Source: Ascidiella aspersa (taxonomy: Eukaryota). Taken from it: a stretch of DNA of 64,000 bases. The translations under genes were made by a program, and so were the position numbers. This document shows, in pieces, positions 34,101 to 59,567 of the stretch (position 1 is its first letter; every line of letters starts with the position of its first letter). The stretch is taken from NCBI GenBank assembly GCA_963924565.1, contig OZ004610.1:6634001-6698000 (forward strand), written 5' to 3'. The notes below the pieces were generated by a model, which saw only the letters and a list, made by a program, of their open reading frames with translations, did not search any database and was not told the origin of the DNA.

Positions 34101-37100
34101 AAAACAAATTCACAAAAACAGTTTAGGTTTCTAATAATTTCGCTCAAAAAAATCTAGTTGTGAGACATCATTTTCAATTATCTCACTGATTTGTAATTCA
34201 ATCAATAAAAAATCATATTTTGGTATATGTCAAAATTGCTATTTATTTAACGTACACTGTTCGGTAGGATATAAAGATCTCTATTAAATTTACAGTATAG
34301 AATAACATAAGGGGAAATGTTAAGAACCACTCTTTTACAGGAATACACGAAGCTTAGTAGCAGCTACCACTCATTACTGGAGCTGGTTTGTCAGGACCAC
34401 ATGAGATTTGTGTGTGGTTTACCACCGTCGGTCATCTACCATCTGGTCGGCACAATAACTGCGGGGCTAACTGCACTCGGTAAGGAAGAAATAATTTCGA
34501 ATTATATGGGCAGAAAATTTATTTAAGAAGTTTATGAATCTGTACCCATAGGGGCCTTCGATTGTGTGACAAAAACCTAAAATATTGTGTCATTGTTTTA
34601 GCTCTATGAAGCTATCGACTTCCATCTAGTTAATTAATATGAGTAATGTATTCGGATTTCTCTTACTGTTCTCGCAATTTTTTTGAGCAATCTTGCTGAT
34701 AACCAATTTAAACAAATCTACCTATGTGAACTACATCGTTTGGCGACCCAAACCAAGTTAAGCGGCGGCCCAGTTTGGGGTGGCAGCCCGCAGGTTGAGA
34801 AACACTAATTTGTAAAATATTAAAAAAATGGGAGATCGCCTTGTCGTGCCAAGTTGTAAAAGGCAGATCGGATCCGTAGGTTCCCCATGCCATACGAAAT
34901 TTCAACCCGTACGCCTTTTCTTACTAAAAACTAAGTGGATCCGATGGGATACTGAAGTCTTTATCAAGTGGATTCATACATTATTCAAATAGAATACAAA
35001 ACATTGTCATTGAAACAGAAACAGCATCGGTGTAAGTTAAACATTATCGCCAAACACTTACAAGTAACTCACAATATTATTTCCTACGGCGACAAGGTAG
35101 TGACACCAACTGCCGTAAGGACAACTAGAATATCAAGACACCATGTGCTCAGTGACCTTTGCCCGTTTGACCGCAAGTAATAGAATGCTCACACATTTAA
35201 ATAGGTCATAAAGCACTTACATGAAAATGCGCTTTAGCAATCTCACTGTTAAGCTCAACACTTACCCTCCTCAGACACAGCTGTATGCACCTGCTGTTGC
35301 ACGGCCCTCGACCATGTGGCCACCTACCTCTACCGCATCGGTTCCCGTTCGCCCTCCCTCACCAACGGTGACGTAGGCGGTGTGACGTCATCGTCGTCGT
35401 CATCATCGGACAAGCTACGTCACGGCCAGGTCGACCGGCAGCGCGAACGTCACTTCTTGCGCGCGATGATGGAGCGACCCGACATTCTGCAATCGGTGAG
35501 GCGTGACGATATTGTCCATTATTTAATTATTAAAATCAGGAAAAAGAAAATTAAAAAATTACAGTTAGTAATGACACGTTTATCGCGATGTTTTCTAATA
35601 GGTTATAGTTTGCTTTTGCGTTTAACAATATGCCCGATACGAGTGGCGAGTAGTGTCACCTGATTGCATAAGTACATCCGTTCGATCAAATGTTGAATAT
35701 TACATAAGTAAAATCAAACAAATAGAATAAGAAAATCGAGGCATGTTTATGATATAAAAAAATAATATGTAAGGATTCATCTGGCACATATTGTTAAGCA
35801 CACACGTTTCGATTAGCTATTCGGGTAATCCTTTTCAAGACAAAAAATTTCAAGTGGACAGTAAGGTCTACGCTTAATCTTAAATAATTTTGCTGTCGAA
35901 TCGTTGGCACTTACTAAAAAATGCTATGTCAGAAAAATCGTTTATAATAAGAACAATGACCCCTGAAATAAAACGTGTATCAAACCGAATTAATTCATAT
36001 TTTCAGCTTTTATTAGAAAAAATAATGAGCTACTAGGCTGCAACTACGGCAGTTTTGTCAGTGCTGTCTACTTGTGATTTCGGAAATACCTTTTCCTACA
36101 ATTCCAATGACTCCTTTCTCGTACGGATCGGCTCAGTTAATTAACAGCCTTAATTCAAAATCAGCTGTTAAACATAACATCTCAGTCAATAGGCGTGGCA
36201 AAAGTCTGTTACACCTTACAAGATAAGTGTAATTGTTGCAAAACAATTCTTTATCATATTCATAACAACGTGACAGTGAAACAAGTAAAACACTTTATGA
36301 ATGAAGATTGTTTTACATTTGAAGCTTTCCATTCAAGTTCAACTGCATTAGTGTAGCGGTGTAGCCTATGGTTATGGGTTACATCACACTTCAAACAGGA
36401 AACTAAAAGAGCAAAAGTCCCAACATGGTGCACACTTATAGCCTTATTTAGGGGAAAAAAGCTAGAAGAAGGTGAAGGGGCACACAAAATGGAAAATACC
36501 CCTGATTTATCACATATACCAGCCACTTTTGAGCATCCGTTCCAGAATGCAATTTCTTAAATTTCAACTCCCATACGAAATTATCGTACACCTTTTATCG
36601 AAATCCATTTTTTGCACAGGCCCTTTCCACGGTTCTGCACACCATTATGTTCGAGGACTGTCGCAACCAGTGGAGCATGTCGCGTCCTCTTCTCGGCCTT
36701 ATTCTGCTCAACGAAGAGGTAGACCTACGGTTTTTTACTTGCCCACGTTTTAGGATAAAGTTTTACGTAACTGGGTAACTAGGGATGCCCGATAATATCG
36801 GATCGGAACCGATACCCGATGCCAACTTGTAATCGGTATCTTCCGATACTCGGGTGGTGTCGGTGCCGATTTGAAAACAAAATAATATGAGTTATTTTGC
36901 TATGACTAGTTTTTGAACGTAATTTATCAAAGTATAGTAGGCTAACAATTGGCGGTATTTTACCTCCTTAACGCTAAATCAATTTTTGCAGTAATAAACT
37001 GGAAAAAAAAACTTTTATTTTTTTTTGCACACTTAAGCTTTGCAATGACTGCACACGAAAAATAGAAAAGAACCGATTTTTAGTAACTACATTACTTTCG

Positions 37101-40100
37101 CAATGCAAACACACTTATGAAAATTCGCCCTCCTAAAACCTATTTAACAAATTCGCAAATAATTCCTAGTATTGGCTCGAGCTCGAATATGATATTTTTG
37201 GCAAGATAATAATTACGGCTTGTAGCAACATAAGTACGCTAAGATGACGTCGTTTGGTATCGTTTCGGATCGCGATACTTTTTGTCCAAAATATCGTGTG
37301 TCGGTATCGGAACAAGATTTCAGGTATTGTACTCCCCTATGCGTAACATTATGATTTAAGTTATAAGAAATTTGGTCACGGAAATTGCCACATGATTTCG
37401 TATTTCTTTCGCTCGTGTAAAGTCCCTCTATAGGAATCTCTTGTCAAAAGGTTTTATATCTAGCATTGAAATCTGTTGTGTTGTTGTCAGTTAGCTTTTA
37501 ATTCAAGTAACTTTACTGGTTTCCTGAACATTTCCTAGAGAAGTGATGTCCGACGCATTGCGGTACGCCTAATGTTTTAAGTGCAGCCTAGTAACCATTT
37601 TCAATTCAATTAAAATACTTTTTTTACAATATCTTCCAACGTATAGAAAGCGCATATTACCCTGCAGCGAACTAGCATTGAAAAGTATTTAACGTCAGTT
37701 AATAGTTTTTCATGAGACTCTTCTCAAGTATATATGCCGCTTCTAAACAGCCACATTTCAATGTGCACCATGTTAAGCGTGAGATCTACATTATAGTTTC
37801 TACAATACTAAATAACATTCTAATTTTAGCCTTGCCTTGCTTGCACAATCTTTTTTTTTCTTTTTTCTTTTTTTGAACTTATTCGGTTGGCCTTCCTGAA
37901 GGTATTCATTTATGAGCGAAAAATTTTGTGAAAAAAGTTTTTCTGATAAATCAGCGCTTAAAGAACATGAAAAAATACACACTGGAGAAAAACAGTTTGC
38001 TTGCGAATATTGTGAAAAGGTTTTTCGTAGAAATGAACATGTTATGTCGCATGAAAGAATCCACACAAGATAAATGTATTCTCTTGCAAATATTGTTAAA
38101 AGAGTTTTAGTAGAAGTGATTGTGGCTGTGATAAATCGAAGTATGTATTGTACGTGTTGGTATACAACACATTTTGCCAAGATTCCAACTTGCATTATTG
38201 CACAAAACCTATTGTATCACAATAAACGCAAAGTTATAATATTCATTACAATAAAAACTTTGGGGAAAAATGTTTGCGCTGACTCCAGTTTTGACAAATC
38301 AATCCGTTACCAATGTAACTTTGTCCTGACCTCAATTAAAGTCAGCAGCTAAGTTTGTGTTTCTGTATTTTATTGTACTTTTGTCCTTGAAAATTATGTC
38401 ACCAACAAATATTTTTGGTTTCAAGCTAGTTTTGTTGTCACTGGCCACTTTCTCTGACACCAAAACTGCCGTATTAACAATTAAAATCTCACCCAAAACA
38501 AGGTAAAGCTAAGTTTAGCTATTATAAATTTGTGTGAAGTTAAGTTTTTGCTTCCGGGTTGCTTTTTAGGAGATTTCCTTGTATGCCGCTGGGTAAACTT
38601 CTGCTTTGAGTTTTATTTTTAACTTGGGTTCAAATCGTCAGAACATGACGTTATAAATTACATTTGGCGTCAATTAGGAGGTTCTAGCATATTTACGTAG
38701 CATTTAAGAAAAATACCACCACACTACACCGGCCTATATTTTATAAATATTAAAAAAGGTTACATTTAGCACGGATCTGTAATGTAGCGTGCTAATGAAT
38801 TGCAAAGCCAAAACGGTTGAGTGAATCGACATCATCTTGATTTGAGTTTGATTTGAGATTTGAGCTTGTATCATCTTCAGTTAATGTGACTGAGAAGTAA
38901 TTCAAGCATCACTTATCAAAGGCGAGCTACTCGACCTTTTTGGCTTTGTAATTCATTAGCAAGTTTAAAAAAAGAAAATAAAACAAAAATAATATATCAA
39001 ATTAACTATTTCAAATTGAAATCGCACGAAATTTTTACAGGTCACTAAGAAAATTAAAAAATACTTTAATATATAAAGAAAAAACAAACGTATTCAAGCC
39101 TGTTAGGTGATAAAGAAAAAAATGCCTTTGTTAGTTTAACCAAATCTTCGTATTCATTGTCTTTATATAAGGTTTTACAAGTCTAGGCGTTATAGTACTG
39201 CTATCGTGCTAAAGAGTGTGTTTGTTTTTCGCACCCACTTCTAGTTCAAAACACGTAAAGCAAAAAAGGTTCTTGGAGGTTTTTCTTTTTACAACTCTGC
39301 TCGCTGTTAATTAAATTCAGTATCAAGAAATTAAAGAGCAATTGATTCGATAAATGAGATCTAAGCTAGACTGGAATTGTGTTGTACTAGTATTTCAGTG
39401 ATACCTGTTATTTTAACTAATAGGAATCCACGATAAATGCGGGCTAGATCGTATTTTTTTACCAGGATTTTCGCATTGAAGATATCCACAAATACAATAA
39501 CCTACATTACGCCTATTTTTAGATGGCGTCAGAAAAAATTAAAGATAGCTAGTAGAATTTTCTTGTTTCATTCTTTAGTCAGTTAGACTGAAGCACTCCG
39601 GAAAAAATCGTTAAATTTTTACTTAAGTATAAATGCTACTATAGGTTATCGTCGATTTAAACTGGATGCCCATATTTGTTGCAACTAGTTAGCGTCGTTG
39701 GAAAAGTGTGGTCAAGGTCTACTTAGGGTTTCTCAACCGTGGCCCTCGGCCCCCTTGGGGGCCACGGGGCGGTCATTGGGGGGCCACTGGCATAACTCTG
39801 TATGTATAGGTATTACAAAACCAAAGCACCACTTCGTTCGTAATTTGCAAGTTTACTTAAATGTGTTATTTTAATTATGATTGTAAAACTTTCTTGTAAC
39901 GTTCGTAACAAATTTTTCTGACACGTTCTTTGACGCGTCTGTAGGCATGTTTAAAGTATAATATTGGATTCCTTCTATCACGAAAAGTTACGCTTATTCG
40001 AACGTTCGTCATTGGCAAGTTTGGATAAAGGCCGATCACTATGGCTAAACATTTACTTTGCAGCTTTATATGAAGTAGTGCGGAGCCAGCTTTTTTTCAT

Positions 40101-40424
40101 GCGGCCTGTTACTTTCTGATAACCTTCGCCTAATCATAAAGTGTGCGTCGAATGCTGTTGGACAAGCAACTAATGTGTAGCCCAGTGATCGGCAAACTGT
40201 GGGCCACAGAGTCATATTTGATGGGTCCAGAGTTACTTTTGAATTGCTTAGTGTTATTATGTTGTTGTGGGCCGTGCGGTAGCCCTACATTTGTTGCAAC
40301 GTATTTCAAAAGTTGGTGTGTCTAAGAATTTTTATATTGTCTCAGTGTGGTTTAGGCCCGCGTGCCAAATGTGTCTCTGAGAGTGCCGGTCAAGCTATAT
40401 TTTTTTCCAAGTTCTATGTGAACG

Positions 40425-40460
<36 letters not shown>

Positions 40461-43400
40461 TGTTTTCTTTGTTTTATGTTATCATTATGGCTTGCCGATG
40501 TTTTCGATATCAAGGCGCTTGTAAGTCGTGAGACTTATAACTGTACATTTCAATTTCTGTTAATTTATACTATAAATGATTTTTTCAAATCCTTTCATCT
40601 GCCATATGCGTCACGTATCCACTGTTTTCGTCGTGGTTTTATGTAGTGGGATTCTGCAAAGCGTATTTTAGGCCACGACAAAAATAATGTGCCGAACACT
40701 GGTGTAGAAAATTCGCAATTTTCTTGAAGGGCATTAATTTGCAAAAGTAACTCGTGAAATGCAAGTATGGTGCAGGGTTACTCAAAGTCAGTTTTAGACC
40801 ATTATTTAGCGAGGTTATGCACAGCGTATTTCTCGTAATAGTAACGCATTTATAAAACGAAAATTAAGAAATCATCTCGACGACAGTGACATTATTTTTT
40901 TTAATATTAAAAATTTGTTTATTTTGTCGTTTGGATACTAGAGTGGGATTTTGCATGTTGACTAACTTACAGTGTACAGTGTACACGCTATCGTTAACAG
41001 TCCTTACGATTTCCGAATGTTAGTGATCGTTAGTTGTTCGTTTTCGATAGAGTTTTCGTTTGCTCAAGGCAGTCCGTGCTGAATGAAGGCTAGTACAAAG
41101 TCGTTTCTGATATAGCTTGCGGCTAGCTTGTCTTTTCCCAACATAGCGTAACTAGTGACCGACTGACATTGGTTCTTATACAGTTTCGCTTTTATGTTTA
41201 GAAGGGTTGCTGAGCCATCCCACGTGAAGTTTTTAACACGTAAGGCCAAGGTCTATCTGCTCTTTGTTTTATGTTTTTTAATGTTCATAGCAGTGGAGCT
41301 CATAATGCTTCAAGTGCTACTTCGATGTTTGTACATAAATGAAAAACTAGAATAATCTGTCATGATTTTTATAAGCTGGTTTGACAATGTGTGTATCATT
41401 TATATAGTGTATCATCTATAAATCAGCATTTATATAACAGTTAATGACATTTGTTATGTTAGGATTACAAATTAAATTAAGATGACTTGTCTGTGATATC
41501 ACGCAACATTAAATACAATTTAAGGTAAAAGTATTATAAGTCTAATATGTGCAGTTGGCCACCGTCAGGCTCTACTTAAAACTGCAAAACGTTTTTTTAC
41601 ATAGACGTGACCTTTTTTTTCATATTTAAAGGTATAGTTCGGAAGCAAATTAGAAGTTACCTTTATTTAAAAAATTAAACAGTTGTGAGATACCAATTTT
41701 ATGGGTAATAAGTTTACCAAATTAAAATTATGTGATTTTAACTGAATGATAGTGGCCTGCATACCAATTTAACCGTAAAAGAAAAATATTTTTTAATAAA
41801 GTTGTGTTGCTTTTTTGTCTCTGCATTTTGTTTTATTGGTTCATGTTTTGTAATCATCTATCAATGTGTTTAATTTGTTATTTTAAATACTGGTTGTGCT
41901 ATTTATGAGTAAACATGTTTTTTTTAAACATATCTTATTTTTGATTTGGTTTGTTTAGTCTGAATATTATAATGGTTTTAGCGAATAATTTAAGTTTATA
42001 TAATTGTGCTTTTAACTTCAAAACAATTTGAAAACACTTGACAAGGTTCTTTCTTGCAAGCAATGCTTGTAAGCCCTTTCAAAGTCAATATTGATGCAAA
42101 ATTTGTCAACTTAACTGATTGACCCTGTATTTTAATATGAATTGAACTAAAAACAGAACTATGTTTGTGTTAAGGTGAAAGTAGGCATCTAGTTGCATAT
42201 ATAAATGGAGCCCATAAAAAAACAACACAATTGCAAATATTGTGAAAAGTGTTTTCGAGACCGTCATGCTCTTTCATGTCATGAAAGAACCCATACTGGA
42301 GAAAAGCCGTTCGCTTGTAAATACTGTTCAAAGTGTTTTAGTGACAAAGGATATGTCACCAAACATGAAAGAATACACACTGGAGAAAAACCATTCACCT
42401 GCAATTATTGTGAAAAGTCTTTTCGCACCAGTGGAATGCTTTTGTCTCATAAGAGAATTCATACTGAAGAAAAGAAATACACCTGCAGTTACTGTTCAAA
42501 GTGCTTTCGTAACAAAGGACACCTTACCAAGCACGAGCGATTACACACTGGAGAAAAACCCTACACTTGCAAATTTTGTGAAAAAACCTTTCCTCACAAA
42601 AGTTATCTCACCATACATGAACAAATACACATAGAAAATAAACCTCATACTTGTAAATATTGCGAAAAGTGCTTTCATACCAAACAAAGACTTACCAACC
42701 ATGAAAGGATTCACACTGGAGAAAAACCTTACAGCTGCCGTTACTGTTCCAAGTGTTTTCGAATAAAGGAAAAGCTTGGCGTCCATGAACGAATACATAC
42801 AGGGGAAAAGCCATACGCTTGTAAATTTTGCAAAAAGTCTTTTCGTCATACAGCAAGTCTCACAACACATGAAAGAATTCACACTGGAGATAAACCTTAC
42901 ACTTGTGATTATTGTGAAAAGAGTTTTAATGGCAGTGGAGATCTCAACAAACATAAACGAATCCACACTGGGGAAAAGCCGCATACTTGTAGTTATTGCT
43001 CAAAAAGTTTTAGGACAACAGGTAGTCTCGTCAACCATGAACGAACGCACACTGGAGAAAAACCTTTCACCTGCAATTATTGCGGAAAGTCTTTTTCTAA
43101 TACAAGCGCCCTCACCCAGCATGAGCGAATCCACACTGGAGAAAAACCTTTCACTTGTAAATATTGTTCCAAGTGTTTTGGTTTCAAAAACATTCTTATC
43201 AAACATGAAAGAATACATACCGGAGAGAAACCCTACACTTGCGATCATTGCAAAAAAAGTTTTACTACCAGTTGGGCATTTACAAGTCATAAAAAAACCC
43301 ATAGCGAAGAAAAACCTTACACTTGCGGTAATTGTTTCAAGTGTTTTCGTGAGAAAGGAAGCCTTACCAGCCATGAGCGAATACACACTGGAGAAAAACC

Positions 43401-46400
43401 TTTCACTTGCAAATATTGTGAAAAGAGTTTCCGTCATAAAAGCTCTCTTACTATTCATGAACGAATCCACACCGGAGAAAAACCTTACTCTTGCAAATTT
43501 TGTGAAAAAAGTTTTTCTGATAAATCAGCGCTTAAAGGACATGAAAAAATACACACTGGAGAAAAACAGTTTGCTTGCGAATATTGTGAAAAGGTTTTTC
43601 GTAGAAAAGAACATGTTAAGTCGCATGAAAGAATCCACACAAGATGAAAGTATTCTCTTGCAAATATTATTTAAAGAGTTTTAGTAAAAGTGATTATGGC
43701 TGTGATAAAATGAAATATGTATTGTATATGCTAGTATGGAACACTTTTTTGTTTCTCATTTGCATTATTGGACAAAACCTATTGTATCACAATAAACGCA
43801 AAGTTATAATATTAATTAAAATAAAAACTTGGGTGAAAACTGTTTGCGCTGATGTGATGAAAATAAGTTAGAGAGCGATACTCCAGTTTTGACAAATCAA
43901 TCCGTTACCAATGTAACTTTGTCCTGACCTCAATAAAAGTCAGCAGCTAAGTTTGTGTGTCTATATTTTATTGTGCTTTTGTCCTTAAAAATTATGTCAC
44001 CCACAAATATTTTTGTTTTCAAACTAGTTTTATCGCACTTGCCACTTTCTCTGACACCAAAGCTGCCGTTTTAACAATAAAAATCTCACCCAAAACAAGG
44101 TAAAGCTAAGTTTAGCTATTATAATTTGTGTGAAGTTCAGCAAGTTTTTGCTTCCGGGTTGCTTTTTAGGAGATTTTCTTGTATGCCGCTGGAGTTTTAT
44201 TTTTAACTGAACTTCAAGTCGTCAGAACGTGACTTCAGTTCCAAATTACATTTGATGTCAATTAGGAGGTTCTAGACCAGGGGGCAACCAACGACCAGCG
44301 GGAAGGAATTGACCCGCGACCTCGTTTTCGAACTAGGTATCAGGCAATGCACTAATTTTAATTTTTTTGGCTTTATACAGCCAAAAGAGTTTTTCGAACT
44401 TTACGCGAATCTTATTTGACTTATCGCTTTTTGGGGGGAATCGTTTCTTCATGTAAAAAGGTTATTACTTTGCGGATTTTATATATAACATTACATCGAA
44501 ATTATATCAGCGCCATTTCAATAAACACAAACACGTACTTAAACCTAAGTCATTTAAGTTCAAGTCAAGTCATTTGTCCAATGGTCTTAAGACAATGACT
44601 AAAGTGCACCAAAGTCATTGTAACACTGGTATGCAACGCAACACGCATTATGAAAACTGCTAAGCTAAAATGGATTGCAAAGAGAACACGCAGTGTCAAG
44701 AAAACTGGAGGTTAGGTTAGGAAAGCCAAACTAAATGATATCCCCAGTGACAACATAGTACGCTGATTAGCTTTTCTGCTGCAAGACTGCCCCCAAGCGG
44801 CAGGCGCCGATCCAGGATTTTTGTTTTGGGAGACCATGAGTATTTTTAGTAGATGACGTCACAAGTTACATTTAAACGTTAAGTCTTATGTAAGTAGCCT
44901 TGAGAACATCACACAGTTCGTATTTAGGTTGACGGGAAACGAATCCATCTACGTAATGTACCTTTTGTATACTTACATAACATAAGGTACATTACGTAGA
45001 TGTGTTCGTTTCGCGCAAATAAAAAATGTATATCGGAGACTACTTAGCTGCTTAGATTCACCGACCAAGGACTGGTTAACAAGAAAATCTCATCCAACAA
45101 TGTTAACGGCAAAATAAACTTTTTCAGGTAACATTTAAACAAAATTACCACTACACTACACCGGCCTATATTTTATAAATATTAAAAAAGGTTACAGTAA
45201 GCACGGATCTGTAATGTAGAGTGCTAATAAATTGCAAAGCCAAAACGGTTGAGTGAATCGACATCATCTTGATTATTAAGACGTTTCGATTTGAGCTTGT
45301 ATCATCTTCAGTTAATGTGACTGAGAAGTAATTCAAGCATCACTTATCAAAGGCGAGCTACTCGACCTTTTTGGCTTTGTAATTCATTAGCAAGTTTAAA
45401 AAAAGAAAATAAAACAAAAATAATATTTCAAATTAACCATTTCAAATTGAAATCGCACGAAATTTTTTACAGGTCACTAAGAAAATTAAAAAATACTTTA
45501 ATATATAAAGAAAAGACAAACGTATTCAAGCCTGTTAGGTGATAAAGAAAAAAATGCCTTTGTTATTTTAACCAAATCTTCGTATTCATTGTCTTTATAT
45601 AAGGTTTTACAAGTCTAGGCGTTATAGTACTGTTATCGTGCTAAAGAGTGTGTTTGTTTTTCGCACTCACTTCTAGTTCAAAACACGTAAAGCAAAAAAG
45701 GTTCTTGGAGGTTTTTCTTTTTACAACTCTGCTCGCTGTTAATTAAATTCAGTATCAAGAAATTAAAGAGCAATTGATTCGATAAATGAGATCTAAGCTA
45801 GACTGGAATTGTGTTGTACTAGTATTTCAGTGATACCTGTTATTTTAACTAATAGGAATCCACGATAAATGCGGGCTAGATCGTATTTTTTTTACCAGGA
45901 TTTTCGCATTGAAGATATCCACAAATACAATAACCTACATTACGCCTATTTTTAGATGGCGTCAGAAAAAATTAAAGATAGCTAGTAGAATTTTCGTGTT
46001 TCATTCTTTAGTCAGTTAGACTGAAGCGCTACGGAAAAAATCGTTAAATTTTTACAAGTATAAATACTACTATGGGTTATCGTCGATTTAAACTGGATGC
46101 CCATATTTGTTGCAACTAGTTAGCGTCGTTGGAAAACTGTGGTCTCGGCCCCCTTGGGGGCCACGGAGCGGTCATTGGGGGGGCCACTGGCATAACTCTG
46201 TAAGTATAGGTTTTACAAAACCAAAGCACCACTTCGTTCGTAATTTGCAAGTTTACTTAAATGTGTTATTTTAATTATGATTGTAAAACTTTCTTGTAAC
46301 GTTCGTAACAAATTTTTCTGACACGTTCTTTGACGCGTCTGTAGGCATGTTTAAAGTATAATATTGGATTCCTTCTATCACGAAAAGTTACGCTTATTCG

Positions 46401-49400
46401 AACGTTCGTCATTGGCAAGTTTGGATAAAGGCCGATCACTATGGCTAAACATTTACTTTGCAGCTTTATATGAAGTAGTGCGGAGCCAGCTTTTTTTCAT
46501 GCGGCCTGTTACTTTCTGATAACCTTCGCCTAATCATAAAGTGTGCGTCGAATGTTGTTGGACAAGCAACTAATGTGTAGCCCAGTGATCGGCAAACTGT
46601 GGGCCACAGAGTCATATTTGATGGGTCCAGAGTTACTGTTGAATTGCTTAGTGTTATTATGTTGTTGTGGGTCGTGTGATAGCCCTACATTTGTTGCAAC
46701 GTATTTCAAAAGTTGGTGTGTCTAAGAATTTTTATATTGTCTCAGTGTGGTTTAGGCCCGCGTGCCAAATGTGTCTCTGAGAGTGCCGGTCAAGCTATAT
46801 TTTTTTCCAAGTTCTATGTGAACGCAAAAATTTTGTCGCGCTTCGCGCGTTACCTGTTTTCTTTGTTTATGTTATCATTATGGCTTGCCGATGTTTTCGA
46901 TATCAAGGCGCTTGTAAGTCGTGAGACTTATAACTGTACATTTCAACTTCTGTTAATTTATACTATAAATGATTTTTTCGAATCATTTCATCTGCCATAT
47001 GCGTTACGTATCCACTGTTTTCGTAGTGGTTTTATGTAGTGGGATTCTGCAAAGCGTATTTTAGGCCACCACAAAAATAATGTGCCGAACACTGGTGTAG
47101 AAAATTCGCAATTTTCTTGAAGGGCATTAATTTGCAAAAGTAACTCGTGAAATGCAAGTATGGTGCAGAGTTACTCAAAGTCAGTTTAAGGCCATTATTT
47201 AGCGAGGTTATGCACAGCGTATTTCTCGTAATAGTAACGCATTTATAAAACGAAAATTAAGAAATCATCTCGACGACAGTGACAGTATTTTTTTTTAATA
47301 TTAAAAATTTGTTTATTTTGTCGTTTGGATACTAGAGTGGGATTTTGCATGTTGACTAACTTACAGTGTTCAGTGTACACGCTATCGTTAACAGTCCTTA
47401 CGATTTCCGAATGTTAGTGATCGTTAGTGGTTCGTTTTCGATAAGGGTTATCGTTAAGAGTTTACGATAGAGTTTTCGTTCGCTCAAGGCAGTCCGTGCT
47501 GAATGAAGGCTAGTACAAAGTCGTTTCTGATATAGCTTGCGGCTAGCTTGTCTTTTCCCAACAGAGCGTAACTAGTGACCGACTGACATTGGTTCTTATA
47601 CAGTTTCGCTTTTATGTTTAGAAGGGTTGCTGAACCATCCCACGTGAAGTTTTTAACACGTAAGGCCAAGGTCTATCTGCTCTTTGTTTTATGTTTTTTA
47701 ATGTTCATAGCAGTGGAGCTCATAATGCTTCAAATGCTACTTCGATGTTTGTACATAAATGAAAAACTAGAATAATCTGTCATGATTTTTATAAGCTGGT
47801 TTGACAATGTGTGTATCATTTATATAGTGTATCATCTATAAATCAGCATGTATATAACAGTTAATGACATTTGTTATGTTAGTATTACCAATTAAATTAA
47901 GATGACTTGTCTGTGATATCACGCAACATCAAATACAATTTAAGGTAAAAGTATTATAAGTCTTAAATGTGCAGTTGGCCACCGTCAGGCTCTACTTAAA
48001 ACTGCAAAACGTTTTTTTACATAGACGTGACCTTTTGTTTAATATTTAAAGGTATAGTTCGGAAGCAAATTAGAAGTTACCTTTATTAAAAAATTAAACA
48101 GTTGTGAGATATCAATTTTATGGGTAATAAGTTTACCAAATTAAAATTATGTGATTTTAACTGAATGATAGTGGCCTGCATACCAATTTAACCGTAAAAG
48201 AAAAATATTTTTTAATAAAGTTGTGTTGCTTTTTTGTCTCTGCATTTTGTTTTATTGGTTCATGTTTTGTAATCATCTATCAATGTGTTTAATTTGTTAT
48301 TTTAAATACTGGTTGTGCTATTTATGAGTAAACATGTTTTTTTTAAACATATCTTATTTTTGATTTGGTTTGTTTAGTCTGAATATTATAATGGTTTTAG
48401 CGAATAATTTAAGTTTATATAATTGTGCTTTTAACTTCAAAACAATTTGAAAACACTTGACAAGGTTCTTTCTTGCAAGCAATGCTTGTAAGCCCTTTCA
48501 AAGTCATTATTGATGCAAAATTTGTCAACTTAACTGATTGACCCTGTATTTTAACATGAATTGAACTAAAAACAGAACTATGTTTGTGTTAAGGTGAAAG
48601 TAGGCATCTAGTTGCATATATAAATGGAGCCCATAAAAAAACAACACAATTGCAAATATTGTGAAAAGTGTTTTCGAGACCGTCATGCTCTTTCATGTCA
48701 TGAAAGAACCCATACTGGAGAAAAGCCGTTCCCTTGTAAATACTGTTCAAAGTGTTTTAGTAAAAAAGGATCTGTCACTGAACATGAAAGAATACACACT
48801 GGAGAAAAACCATTCACCTGCAATTATTGTGAAAAGTCTTTTCGCACCAGTGGAATGCTTTTGTCCCATAAGAGAATTCATACTGAAGAAAAGAAATACA
48901 CCTGCAGTTACTGTTCAAAGTGCTTTCGTGACAAAGGATACCTTATCAAGCACGAGCGATTACACACTGGAGAAAAACCCTACACGTGCAAATTTTGTGA
49001 AAAAACCTTTCCTCACAAAAGTTATCTCACCAAACATGAAAGAATTCACACTGGAGATAAACCTTACACTTGTGATTACTGTGAAAAGAGTTTTAATGAC
49101 AGTGGGGATCTTAACAAACATAAACGAATCCACACTGGGGAAAAGCCACATACTTGTAGTTATTGCTCAAAAAGTTTTAGGACAACAGGTAGTCTCGTCA
49201 AACATAAACGAATCCACACTGGGGAAAAGCCACATACTTGTAGTTATTGCTCAAAAAGTTTTAGTACCACAGGAAACCTTGTCACTCATGAACAAACGCA
49301 CACTGGAGAAAAACCTTTTGCCTGCATTTATTGCAAAAAATATTTTCGTCAGAAAAGGGTTCTTGTCATGCATGAGCGAATCCACACTGGAGAAAAACCT

Positions 49401-52400
49401 TTCACTTGTAAATATTGTTCCAAGTGTTTTCGTTCCAAAACCAATCTTATCAAACATGAAAGAATACATACCGGAGAGAAACCCTACACTTGCGATCATT
49501 GCAAAAAAAGTTTTACTACCAGTTGGGCATTTACAAGTCATAAAAAAACCCATAGCGAAGAAAAACCTTACACTTGCAGTTATTGTTTCAAGTGTTTTCG
49601 TCAAAAGGGAAACCTTACCAACCATGAGCGAATACATACTGGAGAAAAACCTTTCACTTGCAAATATTGTGAAAAGAGTTTCCGTCATAAAATCTCTTTT
49701 ACTATTCATGAACGAATCCACACTGGAGAAAAACCTTACTCTTGCAAATTTTGTGAAAAAAAGTTTTCCAGTAACTCAGCGCTTAAACAACATGAAAAAA
49801 TACACACTGGAGAAAAACGTTTTGCTTGCAAATATTGTGAAAAGGTTTTTCGTAGAAGTGGCCATGTTAAATCGCATGAAAGAATCCACACCAGATAAAC
49901 TTCTCTCTTGCAAATATTGTTAAAATAGCTATAGGACAAGTGATTATGGCTATGATTAATCAAAATAAATATGTATTGCATATATTAGTATTGCACAATA
50001 GTTTGTAGTCAAGATTACAATTTGCATTATTATACAAAACCTATTGTATCACAATAACCGCCAACCATATATTATTCCTTACAATAAAAAATTTGGTGAA
50101 AACTGTTTTCTGCAGATGTGTTGAAGATTTGTTAGAGAACGATAGTTTACCGCTAACCAAATAAACAGCCTTTTTTGCTGTTTGGCTTGTTTAGGTTTGC
50201 AAACAAATTTAATAGTTTTTTTGTTATGGTCTGCGAGACCTTGCTGCGTTTGGTTCTGGCCCGCGGCCGGGAATACAGTGGGTGTCACGAACACAAATAA
50301 AATTCCTGCTATATCAGGTTGTACTTCGCTTTTCATTCAGGTTCTATTCAGAAGTGTTAACATAAAGTTTACATTTGAGTTGGTTTTATTTTAAGTTTTA
50401 CACGGGCACATGTTTTCCCTTGCAACTTTTCATGTTGAATGACCTACCTTATCTGCGTTTTTTTAAGAAATCAGAGCTACGTAATGTTTTTGAAACACAT
50501 GTACTGGGATGATTGTTTCAAAATTTTTGGGTTTAGTTTGAATTAAAGGTATAATTTTGATGCTTTAGTGCTACTAGACTTTGTTCGTATCTAAGCTTAG
50601 ATCGTCATTGCGATTGTCTTAAATAAATAACAATTCTCCGATTGAGTATAAATAAATATGTGTGCGTTTTGAAAGTTTAGACGTAGTCCGATATTATTAG
50701 GCTTGAACATCATTTACTTAAAGTGCATACGTCGTTTACTATAAATTACTTAACCCAGCCCTATTTGATACAAAGCATCGATAAGCCATTATAAGAGATT
50801 ATTCAAAACTTCAGCAGTTCGACATTTTTTAAACCATGAAAAAAACGTAAATTTTATTATTAATAAAATTACGAATAAAAAACTGAATGAAACGAAGTAT
50901 AAAACGACCATTTATATTTGTGTATCGGCATATTTTCTATTTTTAAAGCCGAATATCCCTCAGAAGTTCACACAGAAAGGTAACAATACCAAAAAGTGAA
51001 ACATAGTCGGGGCTTTTTCGTCATATTTACAATGATAGATGACATTGACATACCTTGCACGTAAAAGGACATAATTCACGAATGTTTAGCATGTTTCATC
51101 TTTGTGCACTCCGAAAAGCAACTACTGGGGGACAAACTACTCAATATTCGTGGTTTTATACTTCCAGTATAAACACGTCGGGACCTAGATAAAACAAGTG
51201 GTATACGGGTTCCGCTGCGATTTTGCAGAAAGCTCGATTCTGTTTTTATCAAACGAATGAAGGATTTATTCGTTACAATTGGGCCAAAGTTAAATTAAGC
51301 CAAAAGTTTCCGTTTGTTTTCGGATGTTAATTTGCACAGGTTACGCTAAATACTTTCCCATAGCAGACGTGCACACCCGCAACTTAAGGTCCATTCCGAT
51401 TCAGCTCTATAGGTGGTAAGAGAATTGTTGTTTGGATTTGCTCGTAAACCGGTTTGGTGGGGTTGTACTATAGAGAATAAATACTTTCAATATTTCGGTT
51501 CAAGACGATCGCGGCGTTGTTGTGCTACCGTAACGGCTTTCTTTATTTCGGTCATATATTTTGAAATCATATTCGTTTAGTAAGTAACATATAACCAAAG
51601 CCGCTGTGCGTTCTATATTCGGGTAAATATAATTACTATTCTGTCTTTAAGAGAATCAATTATTTCAAATTTACTAATCAAAACATATTGTGTTATATGT
51701 ATAAATGATCACTATTAATTATCACCAAACCAGAGGTTTCCATCGCTCTTCGGCATTACATGGCCACAGAACCTTTGTAGTAAGTCTTTTTGTGGTACAA
51801 ACTTCGAACTATTTACTCAGACCCAGCACTTCTACACTAAATTGTAACAAAAAATACGTTGGAACTAAATCCGTGAGAATTGTACTCCAATCACTGTATC
51901 TTCAAAAATCTTCTTCGAATATGTTATGGTGCCATTCTTTTTACTAAAAGAATATAACGTGGCCTTTTGTCACGAACACAAACAATGTGCCCTCTATTTT
52001 GGCACTACTTCGACGCTTTCCAGTCTAGATATCCAGAAATGCTTTCAGGAAATTAACTTTCAGTGAGCTTCTGAAGCACATAAAAGCACACGAGTTTTCA
52101 CTGCCACGTTTAATATAGAATGACCTGCTTTAACACACTAACACAGACAACACAGTAAACATCACGCCACGTTTAGGGCATTATGACGTAACACGAACGC
52201 CTATAGTCAAAGCAAAACAACAAGTTTAACGCCTAAGGAAAGAATGTTACATACAATCGTTAGAAACTAATTTGTGACACTTCTATATTATTTAATCACC
52301 TTTAACGGACTCCATCGCTCTTCGACAGTACCTGGCCTCGATTGAGAAGTCGTTGTGTGAACCGAGCGTCGACCACGGCACCCTCGACCCTTCCTCTGTG

Positions 52401-53439
52401 CGCACCTGCTTTAACCAGCTCATGAACGGCGTCGACAAGAACCTACACACAAAGACTCGCGACAGGTTGGTAGGGAAAACTGTGCGCCCTTGTGTTTGTC
52501 TTTGCCCACGGAAACGTAATTTTTTTGTTTCTGAATTTTTAAGCTATATTCAACTCTTAACAATATAAGAAATTTTGTGATAATACAGGAAATAAAAAAA
52601 ATCGGTAGCCACTTAAACAGACATTACAACCCAAAAATCGAAATATTTAATGCTTGTTTTTTTGTATAAGTTGCGAAACGCTAGTTTCTAAATACAAGCA
52701 AATTAAATATTGCCGTATCGATATTTTATCCTGCCAAGGCGCTAACTTATTTACAAGCGTTGTTTTTTTAGTTCTCACTGGTTCGTAAACGCCGGTCGAC
52801 GATAACATTTTAACGCCCCGTTTATATTTGATGAAACTCTAAATTCAAATTCTTACAAACTTGCAAAAAATTACAAGCTTTAATGATGTATTACTGTAAA
52901 AGGTTAATTTAATCTATAAAATTTAGCAAATTTAAAAGTGAATTTGGCCGCCCACCCAGAAAGGTTTAGTTGTGGCACCTCGATCTCGTATATTTGTCTT
53001 AAAGTGTCTAAAATGTAGACTAATCTTTTCAAATTAACTACAGTGACCCCGTAAAATAATATACTCCTATCCCATTTAGTGCTGTATAATGTAATGTGTT
53101 TTAATAAATGTATCCTAATGACTTGCCTAGTTGTTTAAAAAATATTTCCTTCCAAATTCGGGTTAGTAAAATAATTTTTGTATTTCTACCATTCCGCAAG
53201 TCTCAAAGGGTTAAAAACCACTGGTCCAAAAAAAATCCTGGCCTGACACAAAATGGCGCCCGATTAACTCTGCCTTCGCGTCGCCACCGTTTAGATTCAC
53301 GCAGAACCTTTCCATCTTCCGCCGCGACATTCTCGAACTGATGAAGTCGGAGACATCGACGAGCACCGCCCCCGCCGCCACACCGGGGGCCAACGTCATC
53401 GACCTGTCGGCGGGCAACTCCAACAACATGATGACGTAG
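13102..53439 (+). CDS. XPO7: Exportin-7 / RanBP16-RanBP17 family. 25 exons: 13102-13110, 13964-14110, 14968-15061, 15488-15654, 16035-16244, 16616-16791, 17591-17735, 20380-20577, 21531-21752, 23153-23243, 24114-24249, 25314-25422, 26030-26103, 26988-27132, 27928-28030, 28412-28508, 30570-30680, 31584-31665, 32285-32393, 33570-33784, 34341-34479, 35275-35495, 36620-36718, 52329-52465, 53295-53439 (TAG)
   Basis: Continuous in-frame splicing. Recognisable XPO7 peptides: [136 protein letters not shown], and a C-terminal NNMMT*. The 9-nt first exon (MEQ) is the least certain. Confidence 0.95.
17163..17608 (+). repeat. ~77-bp degenerate minisatellite (about 6 units) running into the XPO7 exon-7 acceptor
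   Basis: Repeats of AGAGT(G/A)TACCA(A)TTTTT..AGATAA..TTTTT(GC)CAGTCTTCC.ATTT.ACT. Confidence 0.85.
17881..18185. mobile_element. hAT-type MITE
   Basis: CAGTGTTTCTTAACC / GGTTGAGAAACGCTG; perfect TSD GTATAGAT. Confidence 0.88.
18626..18673 (+). ncRNA. Minimal hammerhead ribozyme motif (PLE 3'-end fragment)
   Basis: TTTACC-CTGAAGA-A-GGCGATTTG(CA)TAGGTTGCC-GAAAC-GTT-GGTTAA. Stem II pairs with G-U wobbles. Confidence 0.7.
19311..19425 (+). repeat. ~22-bp tandem repeat (AATTTAGTAGTTTGGAATTGCA), about 5 copies
   Basis: Directly visible periodicity. Confidence 0.85.
20808..20848 (-). ncRNA. Minimal hammerhead ribozyme motif within fold-back element ~20731-20915
   Basis: Minus strand: AA-CTGAAGA-T-GATAC(AAGCTC)GTATC-GAAAC-GTC-TT. 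A degenerate inverted copy CTGACGATGATA.. lies at 20862. Confidence 0.65.
21767..22743. mobile_element. hAT-type non-autonomous element hosting the 21901-22101 insertion
   Basis: CAGGGGTCAGCAA / TCGGTGACCGCTG termini, subterminal CCGGCCC motifs, degenerate TSD. Confidence 0.65.
21901..22101. mobile_element. Fold-back insertion (~60-bp near-perfect inverted arms) with a 12-bp flanking direct repeat and a half hammerhead; PLE-like
   Basis: Arms ~21908-21970 and 22007-22069. TAATACAGTTCT at 21901 and 22090. The minus strand reads GCCGAAACGTT...AATAAA. Confidence 0.65.
24761..25259. mobile_element. hAT-type MITE with nested Merlin-like MITE (24841-25052)
   Basis: Outer termini CAGTGGTTCCTAA / TTGGGAACCACTG. 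Inner element GGCGCTGGTCT...AGACCAGCGTC with perfect TSD AGAAAAAC. Confidence 0.85.
26533..26838. mobile_element. hAT-type MITE
   Basis: TIR CAGGGATGTCCAAC / GTTGGACATCCCTG; perfect TSD TATTAGAC; GGGCCGC subterminal repeats. Confidence 0.92.
28608..28860 (+). repeat. Unclassified dispersed repeat (also ~10900-11142; related ATAAGAC motifs at 60760-60900)
   Basis: Shared TTTTGGACTCCA, ATAAGAC, AAATAGCCAGAA and CACTAACTCCC...ATTTCAACCCTA blocks. Confidence 0.6.
29002..30367. mobile_element. hAT-type non-autonomous element (~1.37 kb); inverted deletion derivative at 3632-3780
   Basis: CAGTGTTTCTTAAA / TTTAAGAAGCACTG; TSD CCATAGAG/TCATAGAG. 30250-30367 is the reverse complement of 3632-3750. 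Confidence 0.8.
30681..31583 (+). other. U12-type (minor spliceosome) GT-AG intron of XPO7
   Basis: The 5' site GTATCCTT matches the U12 consensus. A branch-like TTCCTTTAC lies about 15 nt before CAG (31581-31583). A phase-2 join gives ..LFQLV/YPTFID.. Confidence 0.85.
30768..31034. mobile_element. hAT-type MITE inside the U12 intron
   Basis: CAGTGGTTCTCAACC / GGTTGAGAATCACT; GGGTGCC subterminal motifs. Confidence 0.75.
32522..32860. mobile_element. hAT-type MITE (related inverted fragment at ~20130-20353)
   Basis: CAGGGGTTCTTAAACT / AGTTTAAAAACCCCTG; TSD TGTTAAGG/TGTTAGGG. Confidence 0.85.
36780..37339. mobile_element. hAT (Ac-like TAGGGATG terminus) non-autonomous element
   Basis: TAGGGATG.. 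/ ..CTCCCCTA; CCGATA/TATCGG subterminal repeats; TSD TGGGTAAC/TGCGTAAC. Confidence 0.75.
37921..38073 (+). pseudogene. 5'-truncated third copy of the nested ZNF gene (last ~1.8 fingers plus stop, followed by the 3' flank)
   Basis: [16 protein letters not shown]...[25 protein letters not shown]. The segment 37921-38687 matches 43495-44275. Confidence 0.85.
40183..40701. mobile_element. hAT-type MITE, duplicated with the ZNF unit (second copy 46583-47094)
   Basis: CAGTGATCGGCA / TGCCGAACACTG; flanks GTGTAGCC/GTGTAGAA. Confidence 0.75.
42205..43647 (+). CDS. C2H2 zinc-finger protein, 17 tandem fingers, 480 aa, single coding exon, nested in XPO7 intron 23
   Basis: ORF of 28-aa CxxC..F..L..HxxxH repeats with TGEKP linkers. 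An in-frame TAA lies immediately before the ATG. Confidence 0.92.
   Translation: MEPIKKQHNCKYCEKCFRDRHALSCHERTHTGEKPFACKYCSKCFSDKGYVTKHERIHTGEKPFTCNYCEKSFRTSGMLLSHKRIHTEEKKYTCSYCSKCFRNKGHLTKHERLHTGEKPYTCKFCEKTFPHKSYLTIHEQIHIENKPHTCKYCEKCFHTKQRLTNHERIHTGEKPYSCRYCSKCFRIKEKLGVHERIHTGEKPYACKFCKKSFRHTASLTTHERIHTGDKPYTCDYCEKSFNGSGDLNKHKRIHTGEKPHTCSYCSKSFRTTGSLVNHERTHTGEKPFTCNYCGKSFSNTSALTQHERIHTGEKPFTCKYCSKCFGFKNILIKHERIHTGEKPYTCDHCKKSFTTSWAFTSHKKTHSEEKPYTCGNCFKCFREKGSLTSHERIHTGEKPFTCKYCEKSFRHKSSLTIHERIHTGEKPYSCKFCEKSFSDKSALKGHEKIHTGEKQFACEYCEKVFRRKEHVKSHERIHTR
45275..45316 (-). ncRNA. Minimal hammerhead ribozyme motif within fold-back element ~45201-45393 (same family as 20731-20915, 16869-16924 and 38770-38963)
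   Basis: Minus strand: ATTAA-CTGAAGA-T-GAT...ATC-GAAAC-GTC-TTAAT, with a perfect 5-bp stem I and a GUC cleavage triplet. Confidence 0.7.
48624..49898 (+). CDS. C2H2 zinc-finger protein, 15 tandem fingers, 424 aa; recent paralog of 42205-43647, nested in XPO7 intron 23
   Basis: Same N-terminus ([13 protein letters not shown]), near-identical upstream DNA, TGEKP-linked fingers. Confidence 0.92.
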   Translation: MEPIKKQHNCKYCEKCFRDRHALSCHERTHTGEKPFPCKYCSKCFSKKGSVTEHERIHTGEKPFTCNYCEKSFRTSGMLLSHKRIHTEEKKYTCSYCSKCFRDKGYLIKHERLHTGEKPYTCKFCEKTFPHKSYLTKHERIHTGDKPYTCDYCEKSFNDSGDLNKHKRIHTGEKPHTCSYCSKSFRTTGSLVKHKRIHTGEKPHTCSYCSKSFSTTGNLVTHEQTHTGEKPFACIYCKKYFRQKRVLVMHERIHTGEKPFTCKYCSKCFRSKTNLIKHERIHTGEKPYTCDHCKKSFTTSWAFTSHKKTHSEEKPYTCSYCFKCFRQKGNLTNHERIHTGEKPFTCKYCEKSFRHKISFTIHERIHTGEKPYSCKFCEKKFSSNSALKQHEKIHTGEKRFACKYCEKVFRRSGHVKSHERIHTR

Positions 53440-56400: not shown

Positions 56401-56719
56401 GGCAGGGGGTACGACTACTATACGACATACAGTGTGAATTATGCGCTATTCACGCATATTTGTGAATAATGCGTATTTTACAAAAAGCCATAGTAAATTG
56501 ACTGATTTTTTGTGTGTTGTAACTGTAAGTATTGCTGAACTAACAAAACTGTATTTATTGCATGCATTCAACAAGTAAGTTATAAATACTTGGAGTTTAA
56601 TTCCTAATATTACAATTTTATTTACTTCCGTAGGCTGTTGTTGGCAGGGGGAACGAGAAAATTTCATGAAAGCCCAAAGGGTAGCCTACGAGCGATAAAA
56701 AAGTTTAAGGAACACTGGT

Positions 56720-56925
56720 CTAAAGCGTTTTCGTGAGCAAGGGCATAGTATCTCACCAAACGTGAACGAACAAACACAGAAAAAAAAAATTTCACTTGTA
56801 GATGCTGTTCAAGGTGTTTTCATTGCAAAGGACATATTAGGCCTACTAAACATGTAAGAAAACACACGGGAGAAAAACCCTATACACTAGCAAGTTTTGC
56901 GAACTATCTTTTCAGAGCAAAGACC
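56720..56925 (+). pseudogene. Degenerate C2H2 zinc-finger relic (~2-3 frameshifted fingers)
   Basis: agtatctcaccaaacgtgaacgaaca...ttcacttgtagatgctgttcaaggtgttttc...aaacatgtaagaaaacacacgggagaaaaaccctataca, i.e. FTCRCCSRCF and [13 protein letters not shown]. It resembles the nested ZNF family. Confidence 0.7.
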
Positions 56926-58709: not shown

Positions 58710-59567
58710 ATGGAGAAGGGGTCATCAACTAAAAAACAAGACTCTATCAGCCCCTTTAGTTATGACAAGAAGCCTGAACCACCAAAGGCCTTACCTAACC
58801 AAGACAACGAAAAAGAGTTCAGATGTGGTATTTGTGAGAAGTGCTTTAAAACTAGAAAGACTCTTACAAACCACATTTCTCAAGTACACAGTAAAAAGCA
58901 TAGTTGCAAAGAGTGTCCAAAATCATTTGGACTCCTGAGTTTGCTAGAAAGACATGTTCGCCTTCACTCTGGTGAAAGACCATTTCCATGTAAGGATTGT
59001 GGAAAGTCTTATGTAACAGCTGGTCGACTGAACAGACACATGAAAACACACACTGGAAAGAATTTGTGTCGATGCAGCATATGTGAAAAATCATTTACAT
59101 GTGCGACCTATTTAAAAAAACACATTGATTTGGTGCATCACAAACTTAAGTCTTTTAAATGCGAACATTGTGACAAGTGTTTTGGCGATGCTGGGTCTGT
59201 CACTGCCCACCTAAGAACCCACACCGGTGAAAAACCATTCAGTTGCAAATATTGTGGAAAGTGTTTTGCTGGTAGAGGAAATCTCCATACACATGAACGG
59301 ACTCATGCTGGAGAAAAACCTCACGTCTGCAAGTTTTGTGGCAAGTGCTTTGGTCTTGCAGGGTCACTAACTGTCCACCAGAAAATTCACACAGGGGAAA
59401 AGCCGCATATTTGCGAAATCTGTGGCCAGGGTTTTGGAAGAAAAGGAAATCTTTTATCTCACATGAAAATTCACACTGGAGAAAAGCCATACCAGTGTTC
59501 AATTTGCCAAAAGAAATTCACTGTAAAAAGTAGTTTAAAATCTCATATATCTCATATTCATAAATAA
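58710..59567 (+). CDS. C2H2 zinc-finger protein, 9 fingers, short low-complexity N-terminus
   Basis: ORF 58704-59567, first ATG at 58710. Nine CxxC/HxxxH or HxxxxH fingers with TGEKP-type linkers. More divergent than the nested pair. Confidence 0.9.
   Translation: MEKGSSTKKQDSISPFSYDKKPEPPKALPNQDNEKEFRCGICEKCFKTRKTLTNHISQVHSKKHSCKECPKSFGLLSLLERHVRLHSGERPFPCKDCGKSYVTAGRLNRHMKTHTGKNLCRCSICEKSFTCATYLKKHIDLVHHKLKSFKCEHCDKCFGDAGSVTAHLRTHTGEKPFSCKYCGKCFAGRGNLHTHERTHAGEKPHVCKFCGKCFGLAGSLTVHQKIHTGEKPHICEICGQGFGRKGNLLSHMKIHTGEKPYQCSICQKKFTVKSSLKSHISHIHK

Follow-up and report, generated by a model that had tools for sequence, protein, structure and literature searches.

In a 64,000-nt window of the Ascidiella aspersa genome (C4:6634001-6698000 of a 308.6 Mb assembly in 75 contigs; all coordinates below are those of this window, which has 36% GC and 0 N), the gene for exportin-7 (XPO7) carries a single very long intron that holds two C2H2 zinc-finger (ZNF) open reading frames (ORFs), ZNF-A and ZNF-B, together with a ZNF stub, all on the strand of the host. 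We consider it probable that the two ORFs and the stub arose by local tandem duplication and that ZNF-A and ZNF-B are independent nested genes with promoters of their own, across which XPO7 is spliced.

The XPO7 exons were found by tblastn with three ascidian XPO7 proteins, and a frame-keeping search for GT/GC-AG borders around them gave a model of 24 coding exons and 1123 aa with one terminal stop and GT-AG borders at every intron. This model is identical to Phallusia XPO7 in 901 of 1126 columns; in the exon search, Phallusia exportin-7 (83%) and Ciona exportin-7 (79-80%) accounted for the sole four matches among 41 candidates. The exon with the first ~3 codons was not located, so that the exon numbers 23 and 24 are valid only given one more upstream exon. 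The parts of the model that matter here are:

36620..36718, + strand: XPO7 exon 23, upstream of the long intron, donor GT at 36719
36719..52328, + strand: XPO7 long intron, with a 12.2 kb ZNF array and repeat-rich flanks of 1.2 kb and 2.2 kb
52329..52465, + strand: XPO7 exon 24, downstream of the long intron, from homology and the splice-border model
53295..53439, + strand: XPO7 last coding exon, from the splice-border model

The long intron measures 15,610 bp, lies in phase 0 and has GT-AG borders. Exon 23 ends in ...AACGAAGAG at 36718, followed by GTAGAC, and the intron ends in GCTCTTCGACAG at 52328, followed by TAC. The protein sequence across the junction, LLNEE/YLASIEK, aligns with LLNQD-YLQSLEK of Phallusia. 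Exon 24 is single-copy (one of one candidate matched in the whole assembly) and no better copy of exons 23-25 was found elsewhere in the 64-kb window; the junction thus follows from homology. The original prediction had joined exons 23 and 24 in frame over 15.6 kb and put the other XPO7 introns at about 0.4-2.6 kb. The 24-exon GT-AG model and the Phallusia homology agree with the first statement, and the remaining 22 introns indeed span 371-2,644 bp (median 857). The predicted junction across the ZNF array is therefore confirmed at the level of homology and splice signals. Splice-site scores are rough, as the matrices were built on 23 introns only and scored leave-one-out: the exon-23 donor (3.6) falls on the weak side of the 23 XPO7 donors, and the exon-24 acceptor scores 8.2, a value reached by 6 of the 811 AGs in the intron.

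The intron contains the following elements, in agreement with the earlier claim of two intact ZNF genes and one stub, all in sense orientation:

37921..38073, + strand: ZNF stub, 5'-truncated, of which most of the final two fingers and the stop codon remain
38074..38686, + strand: stub 3' flank, AATAAA at 38221 and 38250, 8.6% different from the ZNF-A 3' flank
38697..42204, + strand: ZNF-A upstream region, aligned to the copy before ZNF-B
39705..40880, unstranded: dispersed repeat of ~1.1 kb, borders approximate, second copy at 46135-47276
40980..41239, + strand: predicted non-coding 5' exon of ZNF-A, CpG-rich, proposed from splice signals
41240..42174, + strand: predicted 5'-UTR intron of ZNF-A, CpG observed/expected (o/e) 0.45, weak acceptor before 42175
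42205..43647, + strand: ZNF-A, single coding exon, 480 aa, 17 C2H2 fingers
43648..44274, + strand: ZNF-A 3' flank, AATAAA at 43791, 43820, 43932 and 44076, CpG o/e 0.62
44275..45127, unstranded: spacer of 853 bp, present only between the two units, spanned by a contig of DNA run X1
45128..48623, + strand: ZNF-B upstream region, copy of 38697-42204
48624..49898, + strand: ZNF-B, single coding exon, 424 aa, 15 fingers
49899..50144, + strand: ZNF-B 3' flank, AATAAA at 49964 and 50083, diverged by 17-18% from both other flanks

Both genes possess their own intact ORFs and have no coding exon in common with XPO7. Each encodes a 9-aa leader, with an in-frame TAA directly before the ATG, followed by an array of fingers joined by TGEKP linkers (Pfam zf-C2H2 and zf-H2C2_2). 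No Pfam match to an effector domain (KRAB, SCAN, ZAD, BTB, SET) was obtained for either protein, the other matches being weak and spurious metal-binding ones. An in-frame fusion of XPO7 with a ZNF was found at none of the 9 acceptors tried, since all 9 ran into early stops. Much of the remaining intron is filled by dispersed repeats. A very high-copy short repeat occupies 45200-45440 (also 38761-38884 and 20730-20848), with a summed contig depth of 61,000-92,000. The spacer begins with TCTAGA, then CCAGGGGG, and carries a 36-bp inverted repeat (89%) at 44933-45015; we take its start to resemble a small DNA-transposon insertion.

Evidence for separate transcription units came from the distribution of CpG. 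Over 17,661 bp of XPO7 introns 6-21 and 23 the CpG o/e is 1.08, and none of 335 overlapping 954-bp windows in host introns reaches 0.45 or less. In the long intron, values of 1.28 just upstream of the donor at 41240 and of 1.22 over the rest of the intron contrast with a CpG-poor zone that starts at the donor ~965 bp upstream of each ZNF ATG. For ZNF-A, o/e falls to 0.45 between donor and ATG and amounts to 0.72 over the ORF and 0.62 over the 3' flank, and ZNF-B repeats this pattern; the non-coding flanks of ZNF-A (0.53) hold 18 CpGs against 36.7 expected (P 5e-4). The same drop occurs downstream of the 5' end of XPO7 (introns 2-5, 0.28-0.43) and in the flanks (0.48) of ZNF-C, a further ZNF gene in the window. 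In Ciona, methylation is reported on the gene bodies of broadly expressed genes, with promoters spared (PMC3827831), and CpG loss is described as a proxy that tracks methylation (PMC2975444). We read a gene start ~1 kb upstream of each ZNF ATG because the CpG drop resembles this gene-body methylation; the footprint thus suggests separate ZNF transcription units with a non-coding first exon. For XPO7 itself, CpG is poor in introns 2-5 and ~1.1 in later introns (14111-17590 versus 17736-36619), and GC at third codon positions climbs from 0.51 to 0.70 between the same two stretches. Methylation seems limited to the first 4-5 kb of the host gene.

The start of the CpG-poor zone coincides with a candidate splice donor. 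A branch-like GACTAAC motif at 40960 and acceptors at 40980 and 41001 (scores 7.3 and 6.6) precede the predicted ZNF-A 5' exon, which is closed by the donor CAC/GTAAGG at 41240. The branch-like motif and both acceptors are present in both copies, the ZNF-B counterpart of the exon being 47374/47395-47659. We propose that each ZNF transcript would start at least 1 kb upstream of its ATG, in its own promoter, that the non-coding exon (donor 41240 or 47660) would be spliced to the weak acceptor 30 bases before the ATG (score 3.3), and that the transcript would end at an AATAAA 150-190 bases past the stop. The ZNF's own transcript might also receive a spliced leader (SL) at its 40980/41001 acceptor, as happens in about half of Ciona genes.

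AATAAA motifs had been noted behind each ZNF, and sense nesting had been said to put the host at risk of premature polyadenylation. The motifs at 38221 and 43791 exist as described. Their density in the long intron (26 in 15.6 kb, 1.67 per kb) is no more than chance and stands at the level of the other 22 XPO7 introns (33 in 20,494 bp, 1.61 per kb), of which 17 carry at least one. XPO7 passes such motifs in its introns throughout, and they show nothing special; we rejected AATAAA as a special signal, and motif density does not support the notion of a particular hazard. The host would be transcribed past the poly(A) sites of the ZNFs just as past the AATAAAs in the other XPO7 introns, for which U1 protection would be the reason. 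The predicted ZNF 5' exon appears to be a more specific hazard to XPO7, as joining exon 23 to it leads to a stop within 5-15 codons.

The differences between the copies are layered. The unit 38697-43511 matches 45128-49928 at 90.6%. Their upstream regions differ at 62 of 3,452 aligned bases (1.8%), far less than the synonymous divergence of the ORFs (11 in 180 sites, 6.1%; p 8e-4). ZNF-B lacks three fingers of ZNF-A, its finger B5 being an A5/A8 hybrid, and gained one finger by internal duplication, with B7 an A10/A9 hybrid; the array thus both grew and shrank. The stub differs from the end of ZNF-A at 4 of 153 bases; three of these differences are amino-acid changes, and all three fall within the recognition helix. 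The dispersed repeat of ~1.1 kb was inserted before the array duplication. The simplest reading of these data would be two older duplications, the loss of the 5' part of one gene and a recent conversion of the upstream regions. According to this scheme, one copy would have become at least three, unequal exchange would have removed and added fingers, and gene conversion would recently have made the upstream 3.5 kb uniform even as the recognition helices drew apart. The earlier description of an expanding array can be kept only in part: the tandem array is real and once reached at least three copies, but one is now a stub, finger number changed both ways and the upstream DNA looks homogenised. 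As judged from these comparisons, the array is one of birth, loss and homogenisation rather than of plain expansion.

Selection on the fingers was assessed in a curated one-to-one set of 317 codons of ZNF-A and ZNF-B, with helix positions -1, 2, 3 and 6 taken as base-contact residues. Dropped before the count were A6, A7, the 3' part of A5 and the 5' part of A8, as well as the 3' part of B7, the 5' parts of B8 and A11/B9, and A16-17/B14-15. Contact residues changed at 14 of 43 positions, compared with 7 of 274 others (p 5e-9). The proportion of nonsynonymous differences (pN) in the framework is 0.011 versus a synonymous proportion (pS) of 0.061 (Fisher p 2e-4), which firmly establishes purifying selection on the finger framework. 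At contact residues pN reaches 0.144 versus the same pS (p 0.03 curated, p 0.11 before recombinant segments were removed; two sequences only). Over all 15 finger pairs, contact pN is 0.204 and contact pS 0.239. Positive selection at contact residues is only suggested, because of the uncurated p of 0.11 and because synonymous changes gather in the helices as well. With upstream regions homogenised and helices diverged, two similarly regulated proteins would read different DNA targets, among which transposons would be plausible purely by analogy.

Several observations weigh against separate, active ZNF units. The borders of the CpG-poor zone were chosen with the data already in view, its GC content is 28%, and A and B are not independent. 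Averaged over 20 ZNF genes, CpG is depleted in the ORFs only (0.62), with upstream bins at 0.90-1.15. In Ciona, the promoter is reported not to set methylation (PMC3827831), and the CpG footprint may be historical. The predicted ZNF leader carries three upstream ATGs, and the positive selection is borderline. Sequencing reads were placed on 43660-48990, a stretch that ends short of the exon 23-24 junction. The RNA run X3, chosen by species label, read to 6% and used without an XPO7 baseline, placed 59 of 7,793,684 reads there, 48 of them partly and largely on repeats, so that no transcript was seen. Non-repeat depth did not exceed 1.5, and first mates mapped to the minus strand. This thin RNA sample yielded neither joints nor start or end peaks over 43660-48990, and depth was 0 in two bins over most of the predicted ZNF-B 5' exon. 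A few non-repeat reads also fell in the predicted ZNF intron and past the ZNF-A AATAAAs, which fits host pre-mRNA equally well.

Concerning the origin of the nested genes, an unlikely scenario, although one compatible with independent nested units, is that the last XPO7 exons and a downstream ZNF were duplicated long ago and that a deletion then made XPO7 splice across the ZNFs, which would not themselves have moved into the intron. The features that bear on it are:

51713..51807, + strand: decayed copy of the exon-24 acceptor and exon start, 69% identical to 52286-52372, acceptor AG lost
56722..56913, + strand: decayed ZNF relic, whose 11 best blastn matches after itself (window and fetched loci) are all ZNF-A or ZNF-B

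The relic, on the same strand 3.3 kb past the XPO7 stop, has its closest relatives in A and B and is ~70% identical to its partner. The decayed exon-24 start, 570 bp upstream of the genuine exon and likewise ~70% identical, scores 62, and the best of 418 control windows reached 35 (blastn E 0.005). Such a capture would account for both, but the decayed exon sits after the array rather than before it, no homology was found between the 5' part of the intron and the DNA around exons 24-25, and homology among the upstream regions of ZNF-A, the relic and ZNF-C was not above that of shuffles. A second match, 50283-50451 with 51968-52132, was rejected as a host duplication, as it is a dispersed repeat (40 of 40 scored candidates match).

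It is rather improbable that both ORFs are silent or nearly so, the array decaying like the stub and the relic. In the first 370 coding bases of ZNF-B, RNA depth does not reach 1, stub and relic are dead, and A and B are without an acidic leader found at 124 places in the genome (see below). The state of the genes speaks against decay: the ORFs are open over 1.3-1.4 kb, all 32 fingers are intact despite ~6% synonymous divergence, and framework pN lies far below pS, while a single thin, filtered RNA sample says little.

Alternatively, the ZNFs could lack promoters of their own, and SL trans-splicing at 40980/41001 and 47374/47395 together with poly(A) cleavage would release their mRNAs from the XPO7 pre-mRNA. 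The animal is a tunicate, and in Ciona about half of the genes are described as trans-spliced and operons as resolved in this way (PMC4691747); moreover, the branch-like motif and two good acceptors precede the predicted exon in both copies, and the sparse RNA reads share a single orientation and run through the region. We nonetheless regard this as quite doubtful. Each copy has a fresh CpG-poor domain in an undepleted host, which separate units explain more easily, and intronic cleavage would have to spare XPO7 splicing twice. None of the six listed X3 loose ends, all at repeats, was SL-like, although near-zero depth at the acceptors gives this result low power. Furthermore, an SL alone would not prove host origin, and an SL on ZNF mRNAs would be unsurprising, because about half of Ciona genes are trans-spliced.

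A regulatory effect on the host is similarly hard to credit: exon 23 would at times join the ZNF 5' exon as a poison exon, or the host transcript would terminate at a poly(A) site of a ZNF, and XPO7 would be truncated. The acceptor of the predicted 5' exon is fair and its donor typical in strength, its junction with exon 23 is followed by the stop within 5-15 codons noted above, the exon-23 donor is weak (3.6), and selection against same-strand nesting on account of missplicing has been proposed (PMC3814207). Against this, AATAAA density is at background, 805 of the 811 AGs in the intron score below the exon-24 acceptor, and the thin X3 RNA showed no joints.

We also considered whether the assembler could have placed two alleles, A and B, one behind the other, in which case the end of A with its flank would be the stub of the other haplotype. 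A 1,036-base contig of DNA run X1, a possible source of the assembly and hence not independent, is identical to 44147-45182 at depth 56 and leads from the ZNF-A flank through the spacer into the ZNF-B unit. Depth in the duplicated part is 1.2-2.0 times that of the spacer, roughly 1 plus the shared 31-mer fraction in all 7 contigs, which fits duplication on both haplotypes and equally alleles with a hemizygous spacer. In run X2, a spacer allele with 8 differences in 648 has depth 81, a piece inside the spacer depth 44 and unique duplicated DNA 149-162. These depths are best read as two spacer alleles and four upstream copies, with a hairpin in the 44-fold piece as a caveat. The upstream difference of 1.8% is not far from the 1.2% that separates the X2 spacer allele from the window, and no listed contig covers the part of ZNF-A with fingers 15-16 or the whole stretch. 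Nevertheless, the window contains 0 N, stub and ZNF-B have only ~16 bases in common at the would-be join, and the stub-versus-A changes all lie in the helix, as expected for genes and not for pseudogene alleles. The DNA contigs therefore favour a true duplication, and a false join is disfavoured and very improbable. Equally improbable is an intron operon in which SL release and intronic polyadenylation would coexist with exons 23-24 still joined, in a cassette kept by conversion with fingers diversifying under selection.

Downstream of XPO7, the window holds a further intact ZNF gene:

58710..59567, + strand: ZNF-C, intact, 9 fingers, not nested in XPO7, no more than a distant relative of A and B

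ZNF-C is strongly CpG-poor (0.36) and lies between XPO7 and a gene that starts near 61460, which we take to be SUMF1-like. The region around the relic (56300-56913), downstream of XPO7, comprises a CpG-rich stretch, donor-like sites and an acceptor ahead of the relic. At the other end of the window, 3182-3433 is presumably an exon resembling a myosin MyTH4 domain.

ZNF clusters are ordinary in this genome, which has many other ZNF loci: of 1,071 candidates, 150 were scored and at least 98 of these matched, most of them lying in the clusters of C1 and C6. Judged by finger framework among 27 ZNF ORFs, the closest to ZNF-A after ZNF-B is an ORF at ~C4:1.31 Mb. A protein search revealed no ZNF-A orthologue among the best 120 of 7,904 scored, which were generic vertebrate and other ZNFs with 34-55% identity. 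Most C1-cluster ZNF genes start with a common acidic leader (DDGFSDDS...TDW..E type) that has no Pfam match (e.g., C1:2182921-2183169); 124 of 147 scored candidates match it in the assembly, nearly all on C1. The C6 cluster is marked by a second, different leader. These leaders may be ascidian counterparts of KRAB or FiNZ. No trace of the acidic leader was detected upstream of ZNF-A or ZNF-B by tblastn, and an atlas search with it gave weak matches only (0.78). At C6:2.954-2.970 Mb, two ZNF pairs (494 aa, 630 aa) are repeated ~8.1 kb apart with leaders and finger patterns the same or nearly so, representing either a very young duplication or an assembly duplicate. The C1 acidic-leader family is arguably more interesting than the nested pair itself.

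Taken together, ZNF-A and ZNF-B are best classified as same-strand nested genes, with presumed transcriptional independence, in a tandem C2H2 cluster under birth-and-death evolution, and not with the KRAB, FiNZ or ZAD families. The arrangement is most likely of a known kind and involves no new mechanism, same-strand nesting and diversifying ZNF clusters both being known; the locus is a small example of the two together in a chordate group for which the literature searched describes no such clusters. That search returned no description of an XPO7 nested ZNF locus or of ascidian C2H2 ZNF clusters. With two genes to compare, the locus allows one to ask whether conversion preserves common regulation as DNA specificity diverges, and how a compact ascidian gene copes with an intron 18-fold longer than its median. 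Its importance would rise considerably should trans-splicing prove to release the ZNF mRNAs from the host transcript. In our search, no nested-gene mRNA released from a host intron by this route was found, and the relevant passages on one dinoflagellate genome describe none.

Nested genes are reported to make up ~10% of Drosophila and ~1% of human genes, with same-strand nesting in ~29% of the Drosophila cases and about a third in human, mostly of single-exon genes (PMC4394429, PMC3814207). Two-thirds or more are antisense according to the same sources, in line with the original prediction that antisense nesting is the commoner kind. ZNF-A and ZNF-B resemble the Drosophila same-strand nested genes (Lee and Chang 2013, PMC3814207; PMC4394429) in lying within a host intron, in having a single coding exon, and in being young duplicates unrelated to the host protein. 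They differ in the ascidian host and in the predicted 5'-UTR intron, a type under-represented in the Drosophila set (PMC3814207); expression is here predicted only. Clusters within one host gene are known from human MOB2, which holds the paralogs KRTAP5-1 to -6 (PMC4394429), and from Amphidinium host genes with up to 28 nested genes (PMC12584245). As in these, several genes, including tandem paralogs, share one host gene; unlike these, the XPO7 intron has two intact genes and a stub, in a host whose other introns stay below 2.7 kb. With the SL/operon system of Ciona, in which about half of the genes are reported to be SL trans-spliced (Yokomori et al. 2016, PMC4691747), the locus shares the animal group and the acceptors ahead of the predicted first exon, but Ciona operons are described as genes in a row rather than as released from a host intron. 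Finally, the array is similar to the KRAB-ZNF and zebrafish FiNZ-ZNF families (Wells et al. 2023, PMC10547256), described in a paper whose main text mentions neither 'tunicate' nor 'Ciona'. Like them, it has long arrays with TGEKP linkers, tandem paralogs in clusters, fingers gained as well as lost, and changes that concentrate on base-contacting residues. Unlike the KRAB-ZNF, FiNZ-ZNF and ZAD-ZNF proteins, ZNF-A and ZNF-B open directly with a 9-aa leader behind an in-frame stop, in place of an effector domain.

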